Assembly: GCA_947629975.1 (NCBI GenBank)
Contig: CANRFU010000001.1
Coordinates: 255-64,254 of the forward strand
From: an uncultured Oscillospiraceae bacterium
GTDB taxonomy: Bacteria; Bacillota; Clostridia; Oscillospirales; Oscillospiraceae
Direction of reading: 5' to 3'
DNA: 64,000 nucleotides
The translations under genes were made by a program, and so were the position numbers. Positions 1-64,000 of the stretch are shown here, piece by piece; the first letter of the stretch is position 1; each line of letters opens with the position of its first letter. The notes below the pieces were generated by a model that had not been told where the DNA came from, searched no databases, and saw only the letters and a list, made by a program, of their open reading frames with translations.

Positions 1-1169
1 GGGTACATGGTGATAAAGGTGGGCTGGATCAGCTTCTCCTCCACCTTCTGGTCGAAGCAGGCGTAGAGGGCGTTGCCCCAGGTCTTGTCGGCGGTATCGG
101 CCAGCTCCACGCCGATGGCGCCCGCCGCGGCCACCGCCTCGGCGTCGCCGGTGATGGCGCCGAAGTCCACCCCGGCGTACTCGCGTACCGCGTCCACCAT
201 GGTGAGCCTGCGCCAGCCGGGGGTCAGGTCGATGTCCTCCCCCTGCCACTGGACGTGATAATCCCCCAGGATGTTCTTCGCCGCGCCGGACAGGATGCCC
301 TCGGCGATGTCCATCATATCGTGGAAGTCGGCGTAGGCCTCGTACAGCTCGATGGTGGTGAACTCCGGGTTGTGGCGGTTGTCCATGCCCTCGTTGCGGA
401 AGATGCGGCCGATCTCGTACACCCGCTCCAGTCCGCCCACGATGAGCCGCTTCAGGGGCAGCTCGGTGGCGATGCGCATGTACATATCGATGTCAAGCGT
501 GTTGTGGTGGGTGATGAAGGGCCGGGCGGCGGCGCCGCCGGCCAGGGTGTTCAGCACCGGGGTCTCCACCTCCATATAGCCGCGCTCATCCATGTAATTG
601 CGGACGTACTGGATGAATTTTGAGCGGATCTGGAAGTTCCGCTTGACCTCGGGATTGACGATCAAATCCACGTACCGCTGGCGGCAGCGTGTCTCCACGT
701 CGGTGAGGCCGTGGAACTTCTCCGGCAGGGGCAGCAGAGACTTGGAGAGTAGTGTAATGGTTTTTACCTTTACAGAAATCTCCCCCCGTTTGGTGCGGAA
801 CACCTCCCCTTCGACGCCAACGATATCGCCGATGTCATACTTCTTGAAGGCGGCCAGCTGCTCCTCCCCCACGTCGTCGATGCGGACGTAGATCTGGATG
901 CGGCCCTCTTTATCCTGGAGGTCGGCGAATACCGCCTTGCCCATCCCCCGCTTGGACATGAGCCGGCCCGCCAGACGGGCGGTTTGCCCCTCCAGCGCGT
1001 CGAAGTTGTCTTTGATCTCCGCGCTGTGGCGGGTCACGTCGAACTTGGTGATAATAAAGGGGTCCTTCCCCTCGGCCCGGAGGGCGGACAGCTTGTCCCG
1101 CCGGATCCGGAGCAGCTCGGAAAGGGGCTGCTCCTCCTGAGGGATCTGGTTGTTGTTCTGCTCGGACAT
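1..1169 (-). CDS. lysS: Lysyl-tRNA synthetase (class II), 5' part; runs off the window start
   Basis: Minus frame read by hand: MSEQNNNQIPQEEQPLSELLRIRRDKL...GRLMSKRGMGK...RYRQRYVDLI...GGAAARPF; RBS AAGGAG upstream; follows greA. Confidence 0.95.
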   Translation of the reverse strand, partial: MSEQNNNQIPQEEQPLSELLRIRRDKLSALRAEGKDPFIITKFDVTRHSAEIKDNFDALEGQTARLAGRLMSKRGMGKAVFADLQDKEGRIQIYVRIDDVGEEQLAAFKKYDIGDIVGVEGEVFRTKRGEISVKVKTITLLSKSLLPLPEKFHGLTDVETRCRQRYVDLIVNPEVKRNFQIRSKFIQYVRNYMDERGYMEVETPVLNTLAGGAAARPFITHHNTLDIDMYMRIATELPLKRLIVGGLERVYEIGRIFRNEGMDNRHNPEFTTIELYEAYADFHDMMDIAEGILSGAAKNILGDYHVQWQGEDIDLTPGWRRLTMVDAVREYAGVDFGAITGDAEAVAAAGAIGVELADTADKTWGNALYACFDQKVEEKLIQPTFITMY

Positions 1170-1194
1170 ACCGTTTTCTCCTTTGCAGGGCCGC

Positions 1195-1668
1195 TCACCG
1201 CTGGATGGCGACCACCTTGTACTCGATATTTCCCACCGGGGCCTCCACCACGGCGATCTCGCCGATGGCCTTGCCCAGCAGGGCCTTGCCGAAGGGGGAT
1301 TCCTCCGAGATGCGCCCGTTCATAGGGTCTGCCTCCTGGGAGCCCACCACCTGATAAGTCTCCTCGTCGCCGGTCTCCACATCGGCTACGGTGATCTTGC
1401 TGCCCACGCGCACCGTGTTGGGATCGGATTCGTGCTCCTCAATGACCGTGCAGTTGGCCAGGATGTCCTCCAGTTCGGCAATGCGGGAGTAGAGTTTGCC
1501 CTGTTCGTTTTTCGCCTCGTCGTATTCGCTGTTCTCCGACAGATCGCCAAAGGAGCGGGCCTCCTTGATCTGGTCCGCGACCTCCTTCTCCCGGACGGTT
1601 TTCAGGTAAGTCAGCTCGTTTTTCAGTTCTTCCAGGCGCTCCGCACTGAGCTTATACTCTTTGGCCAT
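1195..1668 (-). CDS. greA: Transcription elongation factor GreA
   Basis: EARSFGDLSENSEYDEAKNEQ and ISEESPFGKALLG motifs; start trimmed to MAKEYKL. Confidence 0.97.
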   Translation of the reverse strand: MAKEYKLSAERLEELKNELTYLKTVREKEVADQIKEARSFGDLSENSEYDEAKNEQGKLYSRIAELEDILANCTVIEEHESDPNTVRVGSKITVADVETGDEETYQVVGSQEADPMNGRISEESPFGKALLGKAIGEIAVVEAPVGNIEYKVVAIQR

Positions 1669-1710
1669 GACGATCATCCTTTCTTTTGTTGGGCAAATTG
1701 ATTCAGAGGA

Positions 1711-1739
1711 ATTATAGTGATTTTGCCGCCGTTTGTCAA
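1711..1739 (-). promoter_or_regulatory. Sigma-A promoter of greA-lysS
   Basis: TTGACA-17 nt-TATAAT on the minus strand (perfect consensus). Confidence 0.85.
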
Positions 1740-1771
1740 GGGCTAACCTCTCTATGGTATTCGGATTTTCC

Positions 1772-2197
1772 CTAATTTTTCCGGGACGCGGGCTGGCGTC
1801 TCCTCTTTCCCCCGCCGCAGAGCAGTCCCGCCGCCGCCCCGCCGCAGAGACAGCCCGCCAACTCGACCAGGGCCTGGAGTCCCAGCGCGAAGTCGTCTCC
1901 CGTGAGCATGCCCACCGCCACAATGAGCAAAAAGCACACCAGGCCGGCCGCCAGCCCGCCTGGCAGAAAGCGGGCCCTCCAGCGAAAGCAGGTCAGCACG
2001 CCGCCGCAGAAGCACCCCAGCACGCAGGCCAGCGCCGTCATCTGCAGGGTGACCTCCTCCCGCAGAATGCCGTTGGACACCGCCACCGCTCCCAGCAGCA
2101 GCACCAACATAGCGACCCCCAGAGCAAGCAGTCCGCCCAGCGCCGCCGCCATGGTCATCTGCACCGCGTTTGCCCCCTGGACCTCCGCCTTTCGCAT
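1772..2197 (-). CDS. Small 4-TM membrane protein (TIGR04086/YrzE-like)
   Basis: Hydrophobic Gly-rich helices ending GGAAAG plus a basic tail; usual position after yajC. Confidence 0.7.
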   Translation of the reverse strand: MRKAEVQGANAVQMTMAAALGGLLALGVAMLVLLLGAVAVSNGILREEVTLQMTALACVLGCFCGGVLTCFRWRARFLPGGLAAGLVCFLLIVAVGMLTGDDFALGLQALVELAGCLCGGAAAGLLCGGGKRRRQPASRKN

Positions 2198-2261
2198 AAA
2201 AAGCACCCCTTTTCATATGGCTTGTGCTTCACCATATGAAAAGGGGCGGCGATTCATGCTG

Positions 2262-2648
2262 TCACTTGCTCTTTTTCTTGTCCTTTTCCTTGTCCTTGTC
2301 GGTGTCCTCGGTGGCGGGGACGTCCTCCATGGTCTGAGTACCCTTGCTGGAAACGGCCCACTTGGTGAACTCGATGCGTACCCGGTCGGCGCCGGTCTCA
2401 ATGACGATGGTCTTGTCCTTCACCGCGCAGATGGTCCCGGTGATGCCGCCGATGGTGGTGATATCGTCCCCCACCTTCAAGCTGTTGCGCATCTCCTCGG
2501 CTTCCTTCTTGCGCTTGTTCTCGGGGCGGATCATCAGGAAATAGAAGATGGCGATCATCACCACGATCATAATGATCGAGGGGAGAATGGATACGGACCC
2601 GGGATCGGCGGCGGCCGCCAAAGGCAGCAGTTTTGCAGAAAACGGCAT
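2262..2648 (-). CDS. yajC: Preprotein translocase subunit YajC
   Basis: FYFLMIRPENKRKK...LKVGDDITTIGGITG motif; downstream of tgt. Confidence 0.95.
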   Translation of the reverse strand: MPFSAKLLPLAAAADPGSVSILPSIIMIVVMIAIFYFLMIRPENKRKKEAEEMRNSLKVGDDITTIGGITGTICAVKDKTIVIETGADRVRIEFTKWAVSSKGTQTMEDVPATEDTDKDKEKDKKKSK

Positions 2649-2697
2649 AAGATGTTGTCCTCCATTTACATAGTTGAGCGTTCATGTGCGTAACTAT

Positions 2698-2726
2698 ATT
2701 ATAGCGTCATTGCCGCTCAATGACAA
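2698..2726 (-). promoter_or_regulatory. Sigma-A promoter of yajC
   Basis: TTGTCA-17-TATAAT; a 7-bp inverted repeat GTCATTG/CAATGAC (2706-2724) overlaps the spacer and -35. Confidence 0.65.
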
Positions 2727-2763
2727 GCCCTAATTTTCCATCCGGCGGACTTTTTGCAAAGGC

Positions 2764-3897
2764 TCACTCCGCCTTACCGGCCAGCCGCTCCGAATACTCC
2801 TCCCGGAACCCGGTGAAGGTCTCGCCGTCCAGGGCCTCCCGGATGCGCTGGGCGAGTTTGTTGTAGAAGTACAGGTTGTGCATCACCGCCAGGCGCATGG
2901 CCAGCATCTCCCCCGCCACGAACAGGTGGCGCAGATACCCCCTTGTGAACTCGCGGCACACCGGGCAGTCGCACTGTGGGTCGATGGGCCGGTCGTCCAG
3001 CTTGTACTTCTCGTTTTTGATGTTCAGGGTCCCGCTCCAGGTGAACAGCTTTCCGTGCCGGGCGTTCCGGGCGGGCATGACGCAGTCGAAGAAATCGATC
3101 CCCCGCCAGACCCCCTCAATGATGTTGGAGGGCGTCCCCACCCCCATGAGATACCGGGGCCTGTCCGCCGGCAGATGGGGTTCCACCGCCTCGATGATCT
3201 GATACATCACCTCTGTGGGTTCCCCTACAGCCAGCCCGCCGATGGCGTAGCCGTCGCAGTCCAGCTTGGCGATCTCTTTCGCGTGCCACACCCGCAGATC
3301 CTCATAGGTGGCCCCCTGGTTGATGCCGAACAGCAGCTGGCCCGGATTGACGCAGTCTGGCAAGGAATTTAACTTGTCATGCTCGGCCTTACAGCGCTCC
3401 AGCCAGCGCAGGGTGCGTTCGCAGGATGCCTTGGCGTAGTCGTAGGGGGCTGGATTCTCCACGCACTCATCGAAGGCCATGGCGATATCGCTGCCCAGGT
3501 TGGACTGGATGACCATGGACTCCTCCGGACCCATAAACACCCGGTGCCCGTCGATGTGGGAGGCGAAGGTGACCCCCTCCTCGGTGATCTTCCGCATCCC
3601 GGCCAGCGAGAACACCTGGAACCCGCCGGAGTCGGTTAGCATGGGGCCGTCCCACCGCATAAACCTGTGAAGGCCGCCCATCCGCTTTACCACATCGTCG
3701 CCGGGGCGCAGATGGAGGTGATAGGTGTTGGACAGCTCGATCTGACAGCCGATCTCCTTCAGATCAAAGGCAGACAGCCCGCCCTTGATGGCCCCCTGGG
3801 TGCCCACGTTCATGAACACCGGGGTCTGGACCTCGCCATGGGGGCAGGTGAACACGCCCCGGCGGGCGCGGCCCTCGGTTTTTAACACTTGAAACAT
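2764..3897 (-). CDS. tgt: Queuine tRNA-ribosyltransferase
   Basis: TPVFMNVGT, LTDSGGFQV, DFFDCVMP, CDCPVC zinc site. Confidence 0.98.
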   Translation of the reverse strand: MFQVLKTEGRARRGVFTCPHGEVQTPVFMNVGTQGAIKGGLSAFDLKEIGCQIELSNTYHLHLRPGDDVVKRMGGLHRFMRWDGPMLTDSGGFQVFSLAGMRKITEEGVTFASHIDGHRVFMGPEESMVIQSNLGSDIAMAFDECVENPAPYDYAKASCERTLRWLERCKAEHDKLNSLPDCVNPGQLLFGINQGATYEDLRVWHAKEIAKLDCDGYAIGGLAVGEPTEVMYQIIEAVEPHLPADRPRYLMGVGTPSNIIEGVWRGIDFFDCVMPARNARHGKLFTWSGTLNIKNEKYKLDDRPIDPQCDCPVCREFTRGYLRHLFVAGEMLAMRLAVMHNLYFYNKLAQRIREALDGETFTGFREEYSERLAGKAE

Positions 3898-3906
3898 AGC
3901 TGCTCC

Positions 3907-4929
3907 TCATGAAATAAACATGGCGTCGCCGAAGGAGAAGAAGCGATACCGCTCTTTCACCGCCTCGGCGTAGGCCGCCAGCACGTGTTCACGCCCCGCC
4001 AGGGCGGACACCAGCATGATGAGGGTGCTCTCCGGCAGGTGGAAGTTGGTGATGAGGGCGTCCAGCACCTTGAACCGGTATCCGGGGTAGATGAAAATAT
4101 CGGTCCACCCCGCCGACGCCTTCAGGGTCCCGTCCTCGGCCGCCCAGCTCTCGACAGTGCGGCAGGAGGTGGTGCCCACGCAGATGACCCGTCCCCCGTT
4201 CTGCTTCGTCTCGTTGATGACGTCGGCGGTCTCCTGGGGGATGACGCAGTATTCCGCATGCATCTGGTGGTCCCGGATGTCCTCCGCCTTCACCGGCCGG
4301 AAGGTTCCGAGGCCCACATGGAGTGTCACATAGCAGACCTTTACACCCATCTCCGCCACCTGCCTCAAAAGTTCTTTCGTAAAGTGCAGGCCCGCCGTGG
4401 GGGCCGCGGCGGAGCCGGTCACCTTGGAGTACACCGTCTGATAGCGCTCGTTGTCCCGGAGCTCCGCCTTGATATAGGGCGGCAGGGGCATTTTGCCCAG
4501 GCGCTCCAGCACCTCCAGGAAGATCCCCTCGTAGTCGAAGCGGACCAGGCGGTTGCCGCCCTCCACCTCGCCCACGATCTCGGCGGACAGCTCCCCGTCG
4601 CCGAAGGTCACCCGCGCGCCGGGGCGGAGCTTCTTCCCGGGGCGCACCAGGCACTCCCACACCTTCTCCCCCCGGTCGATGAGCAGCAGCACCTCGCAGG
4701 CGCCGCCGCCGGACCGTCTGCCGATCAATCTGGCGGGGAGCACCCGGCTGTCGTTGAGCACCAGGCAGTCGCCAGGGCGGAGCAAAGACGGAAGGTCGTA
4801 AAAATGCAGATGCCGGACCTCCCCCGTTGTCTTGTCCAAAGCCATCAGCCGGGAGGCGTCCCGCCGCTCCAGGGGGGTCTGGGCAATGAGTTCCTGCGGC
4901 AGGTCAAAGTCAAAATCGGAAGTTTTCAA
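3907..4929 (-). CDS. queA: S-adenosylmethionine:tRNA ribosyltransferase-isomerase
   Basis: [54 protein letters not shown]; TTG start. Confidence 0.98.
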
Positions 4930-4932
4930 GAA

Positions 4933-6678
4933 TCATCCCACCGTGACGCCAGTATAGTAGAATTTGAGGATCTGATCGTAAGTAAGTCCCTGCTTGGCCA
5001 TGGCGTAGGCGCCCCACTGGCTCATCCCCACGTTGTGTCCTGCCCCCCGGCCCGAGATCACAAAGATACCGTTGGTGCCGGTATACAGGCCGCTGTCCTG
5101 GCCGCCGGAGGAACCGCTCCAGCTCTCTGCGGTGGAAGTCCCGTCCCCGGTGATGACCCAGACGTCGCCCGGGAGAACAAAGGTGTCGCCGTTTCCGTCA
5201 ACGGCGTACAGACCGTCCAGCCCGGTCAGGGCCTGGGAGCCATTGACCGCGAGACCTCCGCCGGAGCCGGACGAGCCGGAGGAGGAGCCGCCACTGAGCC
5301 CGAGTTCATAGTGGTAGGATTTCAGGCCGAGGGCCCGCACCAGCTGGGCGGTCGTCTTTGAGGCCAGCAGGCGGCCGTCCGCGCCGTAAAACGCGATGGT
5401 CAGGGGATTGCCGCCGTCGGTGTATTCTGTGATCCTGGCACCCGCCGCGGTGGAGGACAGGTTGAGCTTGGAGGTCAGCTCCCGGAAGCTGCAGCTGAAC
5501 GTCCAGTAGTTGTTCACATTGATGGAGGCCTCATAGGGATCGGCCTTGCCCATGAGATAGGGGTAGTTGGTGCCCCAAACGTCTTTGGCGCTCATGGAGG
5601 CGCCGCCGTTGGAGGAGTAGTAGTTGCAGGAGGCGTAGGTCCCGTTGTACTTCACGGTGACGCCGGCGGTCTCCTCCACCGCCCGGTCAGAGTTGGCGGC
5701 GGCCCGGGCCAGGCCCGAATACGCTTGGCAGTCGGTGCTGGGGCACAGGTCAAAATGGGCGCTTCTGTGGGCGTTCAGATTGGCCAGGGCATAGGTCCGG
5801 GCGGCCACCGCCTGGGCCTTCTGCGCCTCGATGGGCCAGGAGCTGCTGACCTCGATGGGCACCACGCCCTTTAAGTAATCCCCAAGCTTGACCATGTTCA
5901 CAACGGTCAGATTGCCGCCGCCCACCCGCTCATAGCGGAAGCCGCCGTACCAGCGGTTGTTGTCCCGGCCAAACGCCTCGGTGTTGAACAGGGTGACGAA
6001 GTCCTCATCGCCGCCGGCGGCGTTGGGCATGATGCCGAGGCCGGTGCCGGAGCCCTTGTCGTCGTACTGGAACAGGATGGTGTCGGTCCCGGTGATCACC
6101 ACGCTGACGCCGTATGCGGTGGTGCCCACGATGTCGGTCACTACCCCGTCTTCGGCGAACCGCTCCTGGACGGCCAGCGCTTCGGGGCGGCTGGCGCAGT
6201 TGGCGATCCGGGCGCGGAACGCCCCGCCGATACAGGCCGGGAACCCTCCCTGATAAACGGCCGCGGCCGCCCTGGCCTCCTCAAAGGTGGCGTAGCTGTC
6301 GGGAAGCTGAAGATGGTACTCCCCCACCACCACCGATGCGCTGCCGGCCAGGGATGCGTGGTAGCTGGTATAGCCGCCCGAAGTGCCGTAGCCCACGTTC
6401 ACGGTCTCCACCACAGAGATCTTCTCCTCCGCCGTGGTCCCCAGCTGAACGAAGCGGTTGGAGTCGTCAAAATAGCCCAGGCGGAACCCGTGGCCGGTGT
6501 CGTTGGCCAGGTTGGCGCCGTCGATGGTCCTGCTCTGATAGCCGCTGTACGCCAGCCCCACTCGGATGACCCTGTCGTCCAGGGCGGCGCCGGACGCCTC
6601 GGAGGGGACTGCCGCACCCCCGGCCAGAAGACATAAAACCAGGAGAAGGGCCGCAAGTTGCACGAATTTTCGTCTCAT
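4933..6678 (-). CDS. SpoIID/LytB domain lytic transglycosylase-like protein with signal peptide and Gly/Ser linker
   Basis: YLKGVVPIEV, EAQKAQAVAARTYA, CQAY, GAGHNVGMSQWGA, ILKFYY motifs. Confidence 0.88.
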   Translation of the reverse strand: MRRKFVQLAALLLVLCLLAGGAAVPSEASGAALDDRVIRVGLAYSGYQSRTIDGANLANDTGHGFRLGYFDDSNRFVQLGTTAEEKISVVETVNVGYGTSGGYTSYHASLAGSASVVVGEYHLQLPDSYATFEEARAAAAVYQGGFPACIGGAFRARIANCASRPEALAVQERFAEDGVVTDIVGTTAYGVSVVITGTDTILFQYDDKGSGTGLGIMPNAAGGDEDFVTLFNTEAFGRDNNRWYGGFRYERVGGGNLTVVNMVKLGDYLKGVVPIEVSSSWPIEAQKAQAVAARTYALANLNAHRSAHFDLCPSTDCQAYSGLARAAANSDRAVEETAGVTVKYNGTYASCNYYSSNGGASMSAKDVWGTNYPYLMGKADPYEASINVNNYWTFSCSFRELTSKLNLSSTAAGARITEYTDGGNPLTIAFYGADGRLLASKTTAQLVRALGLKSYHYELGLSGGSSSGSSGSGGGLAVNGSQALTGLDGLYAVDGNGDTFVLPGDVWVITGDGTSTAESWSGSSGGQDSGLYTGTNGIFVISGRGAGHNVGMSQWGAYAMAKQGLTYDQILKFYYTGVTVG

Positions 6679-6717
6679 AGGTTCTCTCCATTTCTCCATC
6701 GGGATCCGTGAAATAAA

Positions 6718-6746
6718 TTGACACTTTACCGTGATGATGCTATAGT
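6718..6746 (+). promoter_or_regulatory. Sigma-A promoter of asd-dapA-dapB
   Basis: TTGACA(6718-6723)-17-TATAGT(6741-6746). Confidence 0.8.
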
Positions 6747-6876
6747 AGTAAAATGTATCCGCCGGTATCGGCAGGACGGACTCTAAAATCTCATATTAGA
6801 TTTATTATAACCCATACACCCGCCCGGTTTCAACACCATCTTTCAAATTTTTTCGGGCGGTCAGGAGGTCAACGCT

Positions 6877-7968
6877 ATGGCAGCAGAAAAGTACAAAGTG
6901 GGCGTCATCGGCGCCACCGGCATGGTGGGCCAGCGCTTCGTCACCCTGATGGAGAACCATCCCTGGTTCAAGCTCACCGTGGTGGCCGCCAGCCCCCGCT
7001 CCGCCGGCAAGCGGTATGAGGACGCGGTAGCCGGCCGGTGGGCCATGGAGCGGCCCATCCCCGAGGAGGCCAGGGATCTGATCCTGCTCAGCGCCCAGGA
7101 CGATGTGGAGAAGATCGCCGGGATGGTGGACTTCGTCTTTTCCGCCGTGGACATGAAGAAGGATGAGATCCGCGCCCTGGAGGAGGCCTACGCCAGGTGC
7201 GAGTGCCCGGTGGTGTCAAACAACTCCGCCCACCGCTGGACCCCCAACGTGCCCATGATGGTGCCCGAGATCAACCCGGAGCACATCGAGGTCATCCCCG
7301 CCCAGCGGAAGCGCCTGGGCACCAAGCGTGGCTTCATCGCCGTCAAGTCCAACTGCTCCATCCAGAGCTATGTGCCCGCCCTGTCCCCCCTCCGGGAGTA
7401 CGGCATCGAGAAGGTGTTGGTCTGCACCTACCAGGCCATCTCCGGCGCGGGCAAGACCTTCCAGACCTGGCCCGAGATGGTGGATAACCTGATCCCCTAC
7501 ATCGGCGGCGAGGAGGAGAAATCCGAGCAGGAGCCCCTGAAAGTCTGGGGCCGGGTGGAGAACGGCGTCATCGTCAACGCGGAGGGCATCTCCATCACCG
7601 CCCAGTGTCTGCGGGTGCCCGTGTCCAACGGCCACACCGCCGCCGCCTTTGTCACCTTCAAAAACAAGCCCACCATGGAGCAGATGAAGGAGGCCTGGGC
7701 CGGGTTCCGGGGCGTGCCCCAGGAGCTGGGCCTGCCCACCGCGCCCAGGCAGTTCCTCCACTACTTCGAGGAGCCCGACCGGCCCCAGGCCAGACTGGAC
7801 CGGGACCTGGAGGGCGGCATGGCCGTGTCCATCGGCCGGCTCCGCCCCGATACCCAGTATGACTACAAGTTCGTCTCCCTGTCCCACAACACCCTCCGGG
7901 GGGCCGCCGGCGGCGGCGTGCTGCTGGCGGAGCTGCTGTGCGCCAAGGGGTATATCACCCGTAAGTGA
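6877..7968 (+). CDS. asd: Aspartate-semialdehyde dehydrogenase
   Basis: VGVIGATGMVGQRF, SNCS, SHNTLRGAAGG. Confidence 0.97.
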   Translation: MAAEKYKVGVIGATGMVGQRFVTLMENHPWFKLTVVAASPRSAGKRYEDAVAGRWAMERPIPEEARDLILLSAQDDVEKIAGMVDFVFSAVDMKKDEIRALEEAYARCECPVVSNNSAHRWTPNVPMMVPEINPEHIEVIPAQRKRLGTKRGFIAVKSNCSIQSYVPALSPLREYGIEKVLVCTYQAISGAGKTFQTWPEMVDNLIPYIGGEEEKSEQEPLKVWGRVENGVIVNAEGISITAQCLRVPVSNGHTAAAFVTFKNKPTMEQMKEAWAGFRGVPQELGLPTAPRQFLHYFEEPDRPQARLDRDLEGGMAVSIGRLRPDTQYDYKFVSLSHNTLRGAAGGGVLLAELLCAKGYITRK

Positions 7969-9746: not shown

Positions 9747-9815
9747 GTCATTTTGTCAAGTCATCCGAATGTGATTGAGTTGCAAGGAAATTCAACTTTT
9801 TGGAGGACTATAACT

Positions 9816-10184
9816 ATGGAAAAGTCACTGTTTGAGAAAATGGGTGGAACTTACCATTTGGAAGGCGATTATCTTCTTCCTGATTTGTCGATGCCGGAGA
9901 TTGTTCCTATTGGCCCGTGGGGACAACGACACCTGCGGTACATCTGTAAGAACAAACAAGGACTTTATGCCGCGCTGCTAAGCACGGGTAAGCTAAACAG
10001 CTATCTGACTGATATTGATCGACAGGCGGAGACCACATTCTCCCAGCTGGTAGAGCAGATGGCCCAATGTCAAGGGGTGACGGAGCAACTCAAGGCGGAG
10101 AATCAGATGGCTTGGATCGGGAGGATGAACAATATTCAGGCGGCGGCAATGGAAATCGTCAATTCAGAAATCATTTACGCATAA
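9816..10184 (+). CDS. tnpV: TnpV family protein
   Basis: SLFEKMGGTY..GDYLLPDL...IGPWGQRHLRY...EQLKAENQMAWIGRMNNI; RBS GGAGG at 9802-9806. Confidence 0.88.
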   Translation: MEKSLFEKMGGTYHLEGDYLLPDLSMPEIVPIGPWGQRHLRYICKNKQGLYAALLSTGKLNSYLTDIDRQAETTFSQLVEQMAQCQGVTEQLKAENQMAWIGRMNNIQAAAMEIVNSEIIYA

Positions 10185-15647: not shown

Positions 15648-17333
15648 TTGAAGAAAAAGCAGCCAGAACAACAGAGGATCACGGCGCTATATGCCAGACT
15701 GTCCCGCGACGATGAAAAGGATGGTATTTCGGGCAGCATCCAGAACCAGCGGGCCATCTTGGAGAAATACGCCGCCGACAACCACCTGCCTAACCCCCGA
15801 TTCTTTTACGATGACGGTTACTCAGGAGTCACGTTCACAAGGCCGGCCTTCATGGAGATCATGGAGCTGGCCGAGCAGGGCCTTGTGGCCAATCTGGTGG
15901 TAAAGGATCACTCCCGGCTGGGACGGAACCGGCTGGTGGTGGGCCAACTGCTGGAGGAAGATTTTGTCCGTTTGAACGTGCGGTATATCGCCATCATGGA
16001 CAACATCGACACGGCCAACGGCGTCAGCGACATCGTGCCCATGCAGGACCTGTTCAACGAGTGGCACGCGAAAAACACCAGCGACAAAGTGCGCCGGGTC
16101 ATGCAGAGCCGGGGAAATGCCGGGATACCCCTCACCACCAACCCGCCCTTTGGGTACAAAAAGGACCCGGAAGATAAAAACAAGTGGCTGGTGGACGAAC
16201 CGGCGGCAGAGGTGGTAAGGCGCATCTTCCAGATGTCCGTGAGCGGCCTGGGGCCAACGCAAATCGCCAAGAAGCTGCGGTCGGACGGTGTGATGACCCC
16301 CAGCGAGTATCTGCACAGCATCGGCGTCAATTGCTCTGCCAAACTCCCGGCGTATCCGCACAACTGGTGTTCTGATACCGTGGCGGCCATTCTGGACCGG
16401 CAGGAGTACACCGGGGACACCGTAAATTTCCGCTCCTTCAGCCAGTCCTTCAAGCAGAAGAAACGGCTGGACAAGCCCCAGGAGGAGTGGAAAGTGTTCC
16501 CCGACACCCACCCGGCTGTCATTGACCGGGAGACCTTCGACCTTGTCCGGGAACTCCGCCAGCACCGTCGCAGGCCCACGAAAAGCGGCATTGTCAGTAT
16601 GTTCTCAGGGTTGCTGTACTGTGCCGACTGCGGAGAAAAGTTATATTACAGCGCCTTGGGAAATTACAAGCGGGAGCAGGCCAACTTCTTTTGCTCCAGC
16701 TACCGCAAGACCCCTGGCGTATGCACCGCCCACTTTATTCGGGAACGTGCGGTGGAGCAGTTGGTATTGGAGGGCTTGCAGCGGCTATTGTGGTACGTCC
16801 AAGTTTTTGAGCCTGTGTTTGCCAGGGATCAGATGGAGCGGTTTGGCCTGCAGGAGAAGAAAGAACTGGCGGCCAAGCGGCGGGAGTTGGACCGAGCTAA
16901 ACAGCGGGTATTGGAGATCGACCGGCTCGTCCAGAAGAGCTACGAGGATATGTCCAGGGGCCTGCTGTCCGAGGAACGCTTTGCCACATTGACGGTATCG
17001 CTGGAAACCGAGCAGAAGCAGTTGAAGGCAATGATTCCAGAGATGGATGCCAGCCTGGAGACTACTACGGATAAGGCCGCTGACCTTCAGCGGTTTATTG
17101 AGCGAGCCAGACAGGTGACCCGGCTGACGGAACTGACGCCTGAAATCGTCCATGAGTTCATCGAAAAAATCGTGGTACACAGCCCGGAAAGAATAGACGG
17201 CAAGCGCCATCAGACTGTGGACATCTACTACAACACTATCGGTCTGTGGACCGTACCCGACGTCGAGAAATTGGAACAGCAATTTCTGACCCACTACAAA
17301 GCCATGCAGAAGCGTAGAAAAAAGACGGCGTAG
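15648..17333 (+). CDS. Large serine recombinase (TnpX/TndX family)
   Basis: ALYARLSRDD catalytic Ser, DDGYSG, KDHSRLGRN, recombinase domain, Zn ribbon LLYCADCG...FFCSSY...C, DUF4368-type tail; TTG start. Confidence 0.95.
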   Translation: MKKKQPEQQRITALYARLSRDDEKDGISGSIQNQRAILEKYAADNHLPNPRFFYDDGYSGVTFTRPAFMEIMELAEQGLVANLVVKDHSRLGRNRLVVGQLLEEDFVRLNVRYIAIMDNIDTANGVSDIVPMQDLFNEWHAKNTSDKVRRVMQSRGNAGIPLTTNPPFGYKKDPEDKNKWLVDEPAAEVVRRIFQMSVSGLGPTQIAKKLRSDGVMTPSEYLHSIGVNCSAKLPAYPHNWCSDTVAAILDRQEYTGDTVNFRSFSQSFKQKKRLDKPQEEWKVFPDTHPAVIDRETFDLVRELRQHRRRPTKSGIVSMFSGLLYCADCGEKLYYSALGNYKREQANFFCSSYRKTPGVCTAHFIRERAVEQLVLEGLQRLLWYVQVFEPVFARDQMERFGLQEKKELAAKRRELDRAKQRVLEIDRLVQKSYEDMSRGLLSEERFATLTVSLETEQKQLKAMIPEMDASLETTTDKAADLQRFIERARQVTRLTELTPEIVHEFIEKIVVHSPERIDGKRHQTVDIYYNTIGLWTVPDVEKLEQQFLTHYKAMQKRRKKTA

Positions 17334-61096: not shown

Positions 61097-61888
61097 CTAT
61101 CCGTCAACTTCGCCCCAAAACACCTCAACGGCGGGCCCGGTGAGCAGGGCGCAGCTCTCCCCGGTGAGGGTCACCAGCAGCTCCCCGCCGGGGAGGCGGA
61201 CGGTCACGTCCCGGCCGCACTTCCCCGCCCGGTGGAGGGCGGCAACGGCGGCGCAGGCCCCGGTGCCGCAGGCCAGGGTCTCCCCGCTGCCCCTCTCCCA
61301 CACCCGGGCGGTCAGACGGGTCTCATCGTCCACCCGGACGAACTCGGTGTTGGTCCGGTCCGGGAAATAGGGCCAATGCTCAAAGACGGGGCCGACGGTC
61401 TCCAGGTCCAGCGCCTCCGGGTCGTCCACCTCCACCACGGAGTGGGGATTGCCCATGGATACCGGAATAGATGTATAGTTGATTCCCTTTACCGTGATTT
61501 GAATGGGCGGCTCTATGACCGGCTCCCCCATATCCACCGTGGCGGACACGACTTTGCCCCCCTCCAGCCACAGGTTCATCCGCCGCTCCCCCGCCGCCGT
61601 CTCGATGACAAGGCCGGTCTTGTCCGTCAGCCCGCTGTCGTAGAGGAACTTGCCCAGACAGCGGATGCCGTTGCCGCACATGGCCCCCTCCGAGCCGTCG
61701 GCGTTGAACATGACCATTTTTAAGTTCGCCGTCTCCGACGGAAAGGCGCAGATCAGCCCGTCGGCCCCCACGCCGAAGTGCCGGTCGGACAGGCGGCGGG
61801 CCAGGCCCGGCAGGTCCTCCGGGGCCCCCTCCAGGCAGTTCAAAAAGATGTAGTCGTTGCCGCAGCCGTGGAGCTTGGAAAATCGCAT
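61097..61888 (-). CDS. dapF: Diaminopimelate epimerase
   Basis: [30 protein letters not shown]. Confidence 0.97.
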
Positions 61889-61953: not shown

Positions 61954-61982
61954 TTGATTTTTCCGTGCTTGTATGGTATATT
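61954..61982 (+). promoter_or_regulatory. Sigma-A promoter upstream of the GNAT cassette
   Basis: TTGATT-17-TATATT with a TG extension. Confidence 0.6.
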
Positions 61983-61999
61983 TTTTCATTAGCAGCAGG

Positions 62000-62016
62000 C
62001 CGACAAAACGGAATTT
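62000..62016 (+). repeat. Inverted half-site, left of the GNAT gene
   Basis: CCGACAAAACGGAATTT; 14/17 identical to the reverse complement of 62590-62606. Confidence 0.6.
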
Positions 62017-62032
62017 ACCGAGGTGAAAGTTA

Positions 62033-62584
62033 GTGGTTTTCAAAGAAACAAAGTTTGAATTAAAAGATGGCAGGGAGGCATTGCTTCGGAGCCCTTGCGA
62101 AAAGGATGCGGAGCAAATGTTGCGGTTTATCATCAGAGCATCTGGTGAGACGGATTATCTGAATATGTACCCGGAAGAATTTGCAGATTTCACTCTGGAG
62201 CAGGAAACGTCTTTCATCAATAAGAATTACTGCAATCAGAATGAGATGATGATTGCTTGCTTTGTGAACGGAAAGATAGCCGGGAATTGTCAGATTTCTT
62301 TTCGTACCAGAATGAAAGACCGCCATAGAGCTTCCGTTGCAATTGCAATCCTTCAAGAGTATTGGAACCTTGGAATTGGAACAAAGATGTTTGAGAAAAT
62401 GATTCAAATTGCAGAAAAACGCGATGGCGTCTGCCAGATCGAACTGGATTTCATAGAGGGAAACACCAGGGCAAGAAGGCTGTATGAGAAGATGGGGTTT
62501 CGTATTACGGGAATTAAACCGGATGCGATACGGTTGAAAGACGGCACTCTTGTAAATGAGTACATGATGCTGAAACGGCTGTAA
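62033..62584 (+). CDS. GNAT family N-acetyltransferase (AT-rich, probably acquired)
   Basis: IAILQEYWNLGIGTKM, NTRARRLYEKMGF; RBS GAGGTG, GTG start. Confidence 0.9.
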   Translation: MVFKETKFELKDGREALLRSPCEKDAEQMLRFIIRASGETDYLNMYPEEFADFTLEQETSFINKNYCNQNEMMIACFVNGKIAGNCQISFRTRMKDRHRASVAIAILQEYWNLGIGTKMFEKMIQIAEKRDGVCQIELDFIEGNTRARRLYEKMGFRITGIKPDAIRLKDGTLVNEYMMLKRL

Positions 62585-62589
62585 TCTGC

Positions 62590-62606
62590 AAATTCCAGTT
62601 TATCGG
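62590..62606 (-). repeat. Inverted half-site, right of the GNAT gene
   Basis: AAATTCCAGTTTATCGG, 5 nt after the stop codon. Confidence 0.6.
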
Positions 62607-62790
62607 GCGCCGGGCGGCCTTTCCTATCCTGCCGTTCTCCCACAGCGGACCCGGTCTGTCAAACCCGCGAAAAATTTTCCTCCGCAGCCGATCCCGGCCA
62701 AACTATATCTTGACAATCCCCCTCATTTTGATAGAATATTGTGTGTCAATTAAGCCTGTCCCCACACTGTTTTTTGGAGGTATGATAACT

Positions 62791-64000
<1,210 letters not shown>

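Follow-up and report, generated by a model that had tools for sequence, protein, structure and literature searches.

A GNAT gene in an Oscillospiraceae genome is probably a mobile promoterless cassette bounded by two short recombination sites

Near the right end of a 64,000-nt stretch of DNA from an uncultured Oscillospiraceae bacterium (positions 255–64,254 of contig CANRFU010000001.1, assembly GCA_947629975.1; hereafter the window), a gene for a putative GNAT acetyltransferase lies between dapF and ppdK and is tightly enclosed by two short inverted sites (Table 1). The original prediction, made from the sequence alone, read this arrangement as a possible integron-like single-gene cassette. 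The inverted pair that it placed around the ribosome-binding site (RBS) and open reading frame (ORF) is exact in position and sequence: the left arm, CCGACAAAACGGAATTT, and the right arm, AAATTCCAGTTTATCGG, are complementary at 14 of 17 positions, and a repeat search lengthens the pair to 22 nt at 77%. The gene is indeed AT-rich, with a GC content of 0.43 (0.40–0.45 along the gene) against 0.61–0.76 for dapF and ppdK, in a genome of 1.86 Mb on 98 contigs with an overall GC content of 0.643. No integrase or transposase gene stands beside it, as had been noted, its neighbors being dapF and ppdK, and no terminator was found between the gene and the ppdK promoter. Although the promoter does lie outside the left site, promoter and cassette travel together in this lineage, the former as a small platform that is common to other loci.

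Taken alone, the arm pair carries limited weight. Inverted matches of at least 14/17 between 50-nt flanks were found for 0.4% of 1500 crude ORFs in the window's genome and for 0.07% of shuffles of the GNAT gene's own flanks. Such rarity points to a genuine pair but does not settle the matter for a single gene among 64 kb of sequence, given that the 951-nt region around the gene also contains other chance inverted repeats of similar quality. We consider the pair real because both arms recur around the GNAT gene in more than ten other contexts and around other genes as well. That the pair arose by chance around a gene acquired horizontally, a reading with which the comparable repeats in the same 951 nt and the scarcity of the motif in this genome would agree, is refuted by the more than 25 cassettes in more than ten contexts and by the strong enrichment over controls described below.

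By a fold-family match above the curated cut-off (Pfam PF00583, E = 1e-15, 58.5 bits vs. a cut-off of 20.7; PF13302 also matched), the cargo protein is predicted to be a GNAT N-acetyltransferase. NCBIfam gave only weak RimI and AAC(6') matches under the cut-off, with no equivalog reached, and the closest solved structure (PDB 2i79, E = 4.9e-22) is a GNAT without assigned function. Relatives of the protein number 2442, the majority of them in gut Clostridia. The same GNAT (87–96% amino acid identity) occurs in at least eight unrelated contexts. Consistent with the proposed mobility, it is not fixed in the genus: only one of 36 same-genus genomes (G009; G and L codes denote the genomes and loci compared, C a contig of a genome) has a close copy (96%), and this copy is flanked by a polysaccharide deacetylase-like gene and a membrane-protein gene, not by dapF and ppdK. 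Further copies in the 87–96% range lie between an ArsP permease gene and a metallophosphatase gene, directly downstream of a large serine recombinase gene (tnpX) and tnpV, and at several loci of rabbit-gut Oscillospiraceae metagenome-assembled genomes (MAGs); a more distant copy (81%) was found in a Lachnospiraceae MAG. Pairwise blastn across 17 contexts revealed homology only from ~31 nt before the start codon to ~20 nt past the stop codon. Both arms are present in every GNAT context aligned, at the same positions in more than ten contexts other than the window, and recognizable arms are lost around GNATs of 74–78% identity in further contexts. A DNA search for near-identical cassettes across the order (400 genomes) yielded no further copy, and searching the PLSDB plasmids with the cassette DNA yielded no match.

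Column by column, the GNAT copies are invariant from position −18 to +12 around the ORF, the block TTA[CA]CGAGGTGAAAGTTA beginning at −18. The outer arm halves (−33 to −19 and +13 to +21) follow a consensus only and differ by context, and beyond them the sequence is unrelated. In the window, the outer half of the 5' site (62001–62009) is thus context-dependent, and its inner half overlaps the start of the invariant, cassette-specific block and abuts the RBS; the inner half of the 3' site plus TTCC is invariant, and its outer half (~62597–62605) depends on context. From 26 cassettes we built a 5'-type consensus, CGAYAAATCGGRATTT (pattern CGAYAAA-TCGGRA-TTTG..), which abuts the RBS, and a 3'-type consensus, AAATTCCNGTTTRTCG (pattern ..CAAA-TTCCNG-TTTRTCG; CGAYAAAC-N-GGAATTT on the opposite strand), which reaches up to the stop codon or overlaps it. 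The two types are inverted copies of one consensus with consistently different central bases. Each forms an imperfect 7-6-7 palindrome of ~20 bp; the half nearer the ORF is degenerate and extends into the RBS or the stop codon. More than 25 cassettes from more than ten contexts have both arms conserved, at identical positions. Complementarity between a cassette's own arms did not differ significantly from complementarity across cassettes (permutation p = 0.10). Compensatory change thus being not significant, pairing of the arms between the 5' and 3' untranslated regions of a cassette was dropped as an explanation, and protein-recognized sites are favored over RNA pairing.

The motif is enriched well beyond the GNAT gene. 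In 11 GNAT-bearing rabbit-gut MAGs, AAATTCCNGTTTRTCG (up to one mismatch) has 33 matches vs. one for the reversed control, and the GNAT gene accounts for only about one of these per genome. About half of the remaining matches are cassette-associated, lying 1–13 nt past the stop codons of mostly low-GC ORFs or at array junctions, and where both ends fall within the locus a 5'-type arm directly precedes the RBS of that ORF. The other matches lie within genes and are apparently due to chance. Across the family, 279 of 401 genomes have at least one match, and the first 40 genomes listed of the 401 have 66 matches vs. 15 for the control. Genome G549 stands out with 60 matches vs. nine (up to two mismatches). 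Opposed matches 500–660 nt apart, family-wide, enclose low-GC ORFs on either strand, and many matches lie within 50–400 nt of contig ends. The suggestion in the original prediction that a CAAATTCCAGTTTGTCG-like motif often follows accessory genes in gut Clostridia is thereby borne out, as is its expectation of enrichment after stop codons and before the RBSs of low-GC genes. Rfam holds no relevant family for the window region, the cassette junctions, an oriT-like region (oriT, origin of transfer) considered below or the repeated modules of G549.

Various other genes lie between the same sites. They encode GNATs of several types (PF00583, PF12746 and FR47-like), NUDIX and HIT proteins, DUF3781, pyrophosphatase-like and membrane proteins and proteins without assignment; an ABC-F protein gene is site-bracketed as well. 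Arrays on metagenome contigs add ASCH, DUF4256, a helix-turn-helix (HTH) protein and a transglutaminase-like protein, together with an α/β-hydrolase and a CPBP protease recognized by sequence inspection only. A second cassette of the window's genome lies on the reverse strand of contig C62 (~1240–1630), downstream of a gltD-like gene. It contains a 114-aa pyrophosphatase-like ORF (GC ~0.41) with a degenerate 5' site and AAATTTCCGTTTGTCG on either side, and it recurs in another context, after a purB-like gene in G443 (L114).

Alternative and empty alleles were found at another locus. The thiF–thiG interval contains a GNAT-like cassette in one species (L103) and a NUDIX one in another (L122); the flanks, including both sites, are 89–92% identical, whereas the interiors are unrelated. 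In eight relatives, thiF and thiG are directly adjacent without any site. The original prediction had envisaged such alleles for the dapF–ppdK interval itself, where the relatives compared provided neither an alternative nor an empty allele, and no contigs with the exact DapF are on record.

Conversely, different cassettes share the same surroundings. Platform A reads ...TTCACA-N17-TGGTATAAT...CGACAAATC up to the boundary, and the right side resumes at GTTTGTCG... regardless of the cassette; its cargo comprises the GNAT gene, genes for a lipoprotein-like and an ABC-F protein, an aminoglycoside cluster and an array of four units. Platform B, which includes window positions 61954–61999, carries the GNAT gene in the window and in L087, L088 and L090 and a 211-aa membrane protein gene in L125. 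In both, the boundary between platform and cassette is the center of the site. The array on platform A (L130) has mutY on one side and a response-regulator gene on the other, and a single platform-A promoter precedes its four units. By scanning metagenome contigs for the junction pattern, we recovered arrays of three to seven units on gut and rumen-type contigs, including L209 (about seven genes in 6.5 kb) and L183, L215, L223, L206, L210 and L226; promoterless units in one orientation behind a common promoter were found in L130, L209, L183, L215 and L223. Spacers measure 12–16 nt, and the arrays end in half-junctions, i.e., a lone 5' or 3' site. A full junction of ~47 nt (3' site, spacer and next 5' site) folds as single-stranded DNA (ssDNA) into a hairpin with a 17-bp stem and a 14–15-nt loop (dG −13.1, z −4.3; for the L130 junction dG −8.7, z −3.1); single sites do not fold. 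The palindrome that was expected from joining the two sites is thus present at array junctions, but the hypothetical circle joint of the window's own cassette folds weakly (−6.2, z −1.7). No locus has the cassette reversed between the same flanks, and an inversion switch was rejected.

Metagenomic depth agrees with this picture of one unit in many places. We compared depth from k-mers in three rabbit-gut runs with the window: the cassette reaches 62–438 and its immediate flanks 0.7–36, the cassette being 4–40 times deeper than its flanks. A fourth run, from another organism, gave the same contrast. Unitigs branch at ~62014 and at 62596–62605, i.e., within or close to the two sites, into several alternative flanks, one of which is the platform-A right flank.

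In the closest relative at the dapF–ppdK locus (G010; ppdK 97% amino acid identity), dapF is followed by genes for an XRE-type HTH membrane protein, an anti-sigma factor and an extracytoplasmic function (ECF) sigma factor and then by ppdK; in G009, a sigma/anti-sigma pair also lies beside ppdK. The three-gene block (L085, G010:C9, 1741–4050) is absent at this locus in the window's genome, to which the adjacency of dapF and ppdK is peculiar. Homology to G010 stops at 61956, the −35 element of the predicted promoter spanning this point (~61956), and returns at ~62631–62641. A segment of ~675 bp, comprising the platform-B promoter, the cassette and a short tail, thus occupies the place of the 2.1-kb three-gene block.

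We propose that the GNAT unit is a mobile promoterless single-gene cassette limited to the RBS, the ORF and a few flanking nucleotides at either end. The discrete unit, its changing contexts, the alternative and empty alleles, the arrays, the enrichment of the motif and the hybrid sites were observed directly, and that the unit is discrete and mobile is very probable. Two imperfect palindromes of ~20 bp would serve as recombination sites at its borders, their different centers conferring polarity. Invariant inner halves, variable outer halves and boundaries at the site centers point to reciprocal recombination within the ~20-bp core; site-specific recombination with a crossover near the centers would leave the ORF-proximal half with the cassette, the recipient locus supplying the distal half. 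The consistent central difference between 5' and 3' sites suggests that like sites pair with like. In arrays, 5' sites are direct repeats of one another, as are 3' sites; recombination of 5' with 5' or of 3' with 3' sites would allow units to be excised or inserted and arrays of a single orientation to be built. Expression would come from an outside promoter, in the window that of platform B, and in the window's genome cassette and promoter would together have taken the place of a three-gene block of the G010 type. The recombinase would act in trans, candidates being a host tyrosine recombinase (Xer-like, as for the dif modules of Acinetobacter) or a TnpX-family serine recombinase, such cassettes being cargo of some TnpX elements. 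That movement occurs by site-specific recombination inside the sites, through a trans-acting enzyme, is likely in our view, although the chemistry, the position of the crossover and the enzyme are what we infer from the pattern; the explanation as a whole, a mobile two-site promoterless cassette with crossover at the centers and an enzyme in trans, we likewise hold with moderate confidence.

Several observations weigh against this explanation. In the assembled contigs, no circle, excision junction or recombination event was observed. Because the two sites of a cassette are inverted, a simple exchange between them would lead to inversion of the gene rather than excision, and it is only from their centers that we infer pairing of like with like. 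As judged from the alignment with G010, the event in the window is a replacement and not a clean insertion, and its outer flanks lack a second site. Metagenome contigs show only occupied dapF and ppdK junctions and no empty allele, although contigs drop rare variants. The motif is nearly unique in the window's genome, with two cassettes only, vs. ~60 copies in G549; its copy number is high in some genomes only. In that 2.1-Mb genome (L136, L139, L140 and L141), the ~60 sites bound repeated non-coding modules of 350–390 nt without a long ORF, in which the sites are joined in all four combinations and sometimes in tandem; the modules look like empty or non-coding cassettes or like miniature inverted-repeat transposable elements (MITEs), and the pattern in G549 is closer to the behavior of repetitive extragenic palindromes (REPs) or MITEs. 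Nor is there a consistent association with an enzyme: most cassettes are more than 10 kb from any recombinase gene found by tblastn with TnpX and TnpV, the Pfam-annotated neighbors of the arrays are housekeeping genes with no IntI-like or Y1 HUH gene among them, and the ~60 sites of G549 are not beside its 20 recombinase genes (five tyrosine and 15 serine).

A recombinase does co-occur with some cassettes, so that the expectation of finding one was realized in part. A large serine recombinase and TnpV precede cassettes in L037, in L163 and on the Campylobacter coli plasmid pCOS502, that is, in elements of the Tn4451 type. According to the publications on them (PMC5704250, PMC3158075), which do not mention sites that flank cargo, elements of this family are driven by TnpX, their ends recombining over 2 bp (GA), and TnpV is a putative Xis-like protein. 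In L037, L042 and L089, the GNAT cassette has the place of cargo, with tnpV on one side and the oriT region on the other, and the copies in L037, L163 and L172 lie between tnpX-tnpV and the oriT/mob region. The window's copy, flanked by dapF and ppdK, is not in such a position. A Tn4451-type element does lie on the same contig (window ~9.7–17.4 kb, GC 0.53–0.58), 45 kb from the cassette, with no cassette sites inside it. Since most chromosomal cassettes and arrays have no recombinase nearby, the window's element contains no sites and the sites of G549 are apart from its recombinase genes, we consider a conserved host enzyme acting in trans, in the manner of XerC/D on the dif modules of Acinetobacter, at least as likely as TnpX.

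L172 corresponds to positions 714–7100 of pCOS502 (NZ_CP018901.1) and contains, in order, the large serine recombinase gene, tnpV, the platform-A promoter, a 5' site and genes for an AAA ATPase, an APH-family kinase and a peptidase C15, followed by a duplicated 5' site, aph(3')-VIIa, a 3' site and the oriT-like region. A platform and sites of Clostridia are thus present on a plasmid of a food-borne pathogen. In L163 (G397:C31, 2428–4545), a 2.1-kb two-site cassette with a 493-aa ABC-F gene of the ARE type and an upstream leader lies in a tnpX-tnpV element and is probably antibiotic-resistance cargo. We also noticed a conserved non-coding region of ~250 nt (..AAACCCTTTAGGAACTAAAGGGCGCACTTCTATAC..) in L116, L119, L129, L151, L163 (4546–4800), L171 (~4140) and L172 (~7050). 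It follows the last cassette of platform A loci and has no Rfam match. In an 8.5-kb circular record (OY725856.1), it precedes the DUF3847 and MOBQ relaxase genes, and because of this upstream position it is probably the oriT of these integrative mobilizable elements (IMEs).

Other mechanisms could produce sites of this kind. The unit might be a non-autonomous transposon (a mobile insertion cassette, MIC, or a MITE) that carries a passenger gene between 16–17-bp inverted repeats and is moved by a DDE transposase in trans. Inverted terminal repeats at both ends in every context, dispersal with many copies in some genomes, the non-coding versions in G549 and the dispensability of an adjacent enzyme would all fit, and short units of this build without a transposase of their own are what MICs, MITEs, REPs and REPINs have in common with the cassettes. 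Yet in ~20 insertions inspected there is no consistent target-site duplication, GGC at the window and TGTT at L089 being isolated cases. Tips are normally the most conserved part of a transposon, whereas the outermost arm bases are the least conserved among copies of the same cassette; the arrays are ordered, with fixed short spacers and one orientation, the ends are polar, with 5' and 3' centers that consistently differ, and in the loci inspected neither a parent insertion sequence with these ends nor a RAYT transposase was identified. We therefore regard transposition as unlikely. The narrower idea that the junction hairpins are small MITEs between resident genes was rejected, since lone half-sites end arrays and single cassettes and the thiF–thiG sites arrive with the gene.

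It is likewise improbable that the sites are REP- or REPIN-like palindromes or regulatory hairpins (mRNA stabilizers, processing sites or operators) through which genes are not mobilized at all, and which mark boundaries as places prone to recombination and to the loss or gain of genes. The hairpins of array junctions are stable and, like REPs, directly follow stop codons, the ~60 dispersed copies of G549 are joined to non-coding modules in four combinations, and both arms of the window's cassette lie within the transcript from the predicted platform-B promoter; but single cassettes have outward half-junctions only, in which the single sites do not fold, one unit of RBS and ORF recurs in at least eight contexts with breakpoints inside the 20-bp sites, the thiF–thiG sites come with the gene and are lacking from the empty alleles, and there is neither covariation of the arms nor an Rfam match. 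A single-stranded route, in which the junction would be an attC-like ssDNA hairpin on which a tyrosine or HUH enzyme acts while the DNA is replicated or transferred by conjugation, is quite unlikely as well. It could draw on the 17-bp stem of the junction hairpin (z −3.1 to −4.3), on the integron-like array architecture and promoterless cassettes and on the position of some cassettes beside the oriT region of an IME, a site of ssDNA production. Against it stand the complementarity of the arms without compensatory change, breakpoints in both sites rather than in one core and the lack of an IntI-like or Y1 HUH gene beside the arrays.

Among known systems, the proposed cassettes most readily invite comparison with integrons, the textbook route for capture and expression of single genes. 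With integrons and clusters of attC sites lacking integrases (CALINs) they share promoterless units of RBS and ORF with foreign composition, an external promoter, same-orientation arrays, palindromic hairpin-forming junctions, small-enzyme cargo such as GNAT and NUDIX and the occurrence of one cassette in many places and of many at one place. In integrons, attC has the structure R''-L''...L'-R' with a GTTRRRY core at the 3' end of the cassette, which starts with TTRRRY. Here, neither attC nor the GTTRRRY core is present; the boundaries are CGAYAAA... and ...TTTRTCG, and there are two sites per cassette with breakpoints in both. No IntI integrase gene with attI and Pc is adjacent, the neighbors of the window's cassette being dapF and ppdK and those of the arrays housekeeping genes, and the cassettes are mostly dispersed singly on the chromosome and not gathered in one platform. 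To our knowledge, integrons are moreover essentially absent from Bacillota and essentially confined to Gram-negative lineages. The reading of the locus as integron-like consequently holds for its organization and not for membership in the integron family.

The dif consensus has 28 bp in an 11-6-11 arrangement of XerC arm, spacer and XerD arm. Sites of this kind bound the dif (pdif) modules of Acinetobacter, which are moved by XerC/XerD in trans (PMC6449649, PMC13141974, PMC9947245). As in those modules, inverted short imperfect palindromes bracket one or a few genes without a dedicated adjacent recombinase, units are shuffled between replicons and the halves of a site can differ in origin. In contrast to them, the site described here, CGACAAATCGGGATTTGTCG, has only ~20 bp (7-6-7) and appears unlike the dif consensus, neighboring units have two sites and a spacer instead of one shared site, and the cassettes are mostly chromosomal and in Clostridia. 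By its sequence features, the organization is like that of integron cassettes and arrays and of dif modules, yet the defining features of both are absent. The cassettes are also not simply Tn4451 cargo, because most copies lie outside such elements. Several, including GNAT cassettes (L037, L042 and L089), do sit between tnpV and the oriT region of Tn4451/Tn4453 IMEs, but most have no TnpX or TnpV nearby, some members of the family (OY725856.1) have no sites, and TnpX is described as acting on the GA dinucleotide at element ends, not at internal cargo borders (PMC5704250, PMC3158075).

More tentatively, and as a possibility that we would rate somewhat below even, Oscillospiraceae and their relatives among gut and rumen Clostridia may possess an undescribed, integrase-independent cassette system, a functional analog of the integron in Gram-positive bacteria. 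Such a system would capture, exchange and stack units of RBS and ORF through a trans-acting, possibly host-encoded recombinase, and it would feed ABC-F and aminoglycoside-resistance cargo into Tn4451-type elements that reach Campylobacter plasmids. A full-text literature search of partial coverage found neither a matching cassette system in Clostridia nor cargo-flanking repeats in Tn4451. If true, this would explain the spread of small AT-rich genes (acetyltransferases, NUDIX, HIT and resistance-type genes) among high-GC Oscillospiraceae, account for one class of assembly breaks in gut metagenomes and provide a 20-bp signature for mining the mobile gene pool of uncultured gut Clostridia. Resistance surveillance would be concerned as well, as TnpX-TnpV elements carry the ABC-F gene (L163) and the aminoglycoside-resistance cluster (the Campylobacter coli plasmid); commensal Clostridia could thus supply cassettes to elements that find their way into food-borne pathogens. 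With defined substrates at hand, the search for the recombinase is now testable.

Table 1 Positions of the cassette, its flanks and the Tn4451-type element genes in the window
Feature	Position	Strand	Remarks
TnpV homolog	9753–10184		46% identical to L037 TnpV
Large serine recombinase	15648–17333		37% identical to L037 TnpX
dapF, left host flank	61097–61888	−	Pfam DAP_epimerase, E = 4.7e-58
Predicted promoter, TTGATT-17-TATATT, TG-extended −10	61954–61982	+	promoter scan; outside the 5' site; part of platform B
Window-specific leader	61957–62000	+	from the break in host homology to the 5' site; blastn vs. G010, alignment with L087/L088
Left arm	62000–62016	+	CCGACAAAACGGAATTT; exact coordinates confirmed
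5' site	62001–62020	+	CGACAAAACGGAATTTACCG; imperfect 7-6-7 palindrome
RBS GAGGTG (from 62020) and spacer	62020–62032	+	invariant among all GNAT copies
GNAT ORF	62033–62584	+	183 aa, GTG start
3' site	62586–62605	+	CTGCAAATTCCAGTTTATCG
Right arm	62590–62606	+	AAATTCCAGTTTATCGG; begins 5 nt past the TAA stop (62582–62584)
Window-specific short tail	62606–62630	+	homology of relatives (ppdK upstream region) returns at ~62631–62641
ppdK promoter (62710–62737) and ppdK (from 62791), right host flank	62710–64000	+	

Three minor observations complete the survey. A remnant of the GNAT cassette in L098 (G436:C38, ~3001–3160), comprising codons 139–183 and the 3' site joined to unrelated upstream sequence, represents a decayed or truncated copy; the genome has a full one as well (L087). 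In G549, bacterial RNase P RNA adjoins one copy of the non-coding module (L136, 290–668). Upstream of the ppdK promoter of the window, GTCTGTCAAACCCGCGAAAAATTTTCC (~62650–62675), of which G009 and G010 have conserved counterparts, bears a loose resemblance to a 5'-type site (..GTCAAAC..G.GAA..TTT) and could represent a secondary target or a coincidence.

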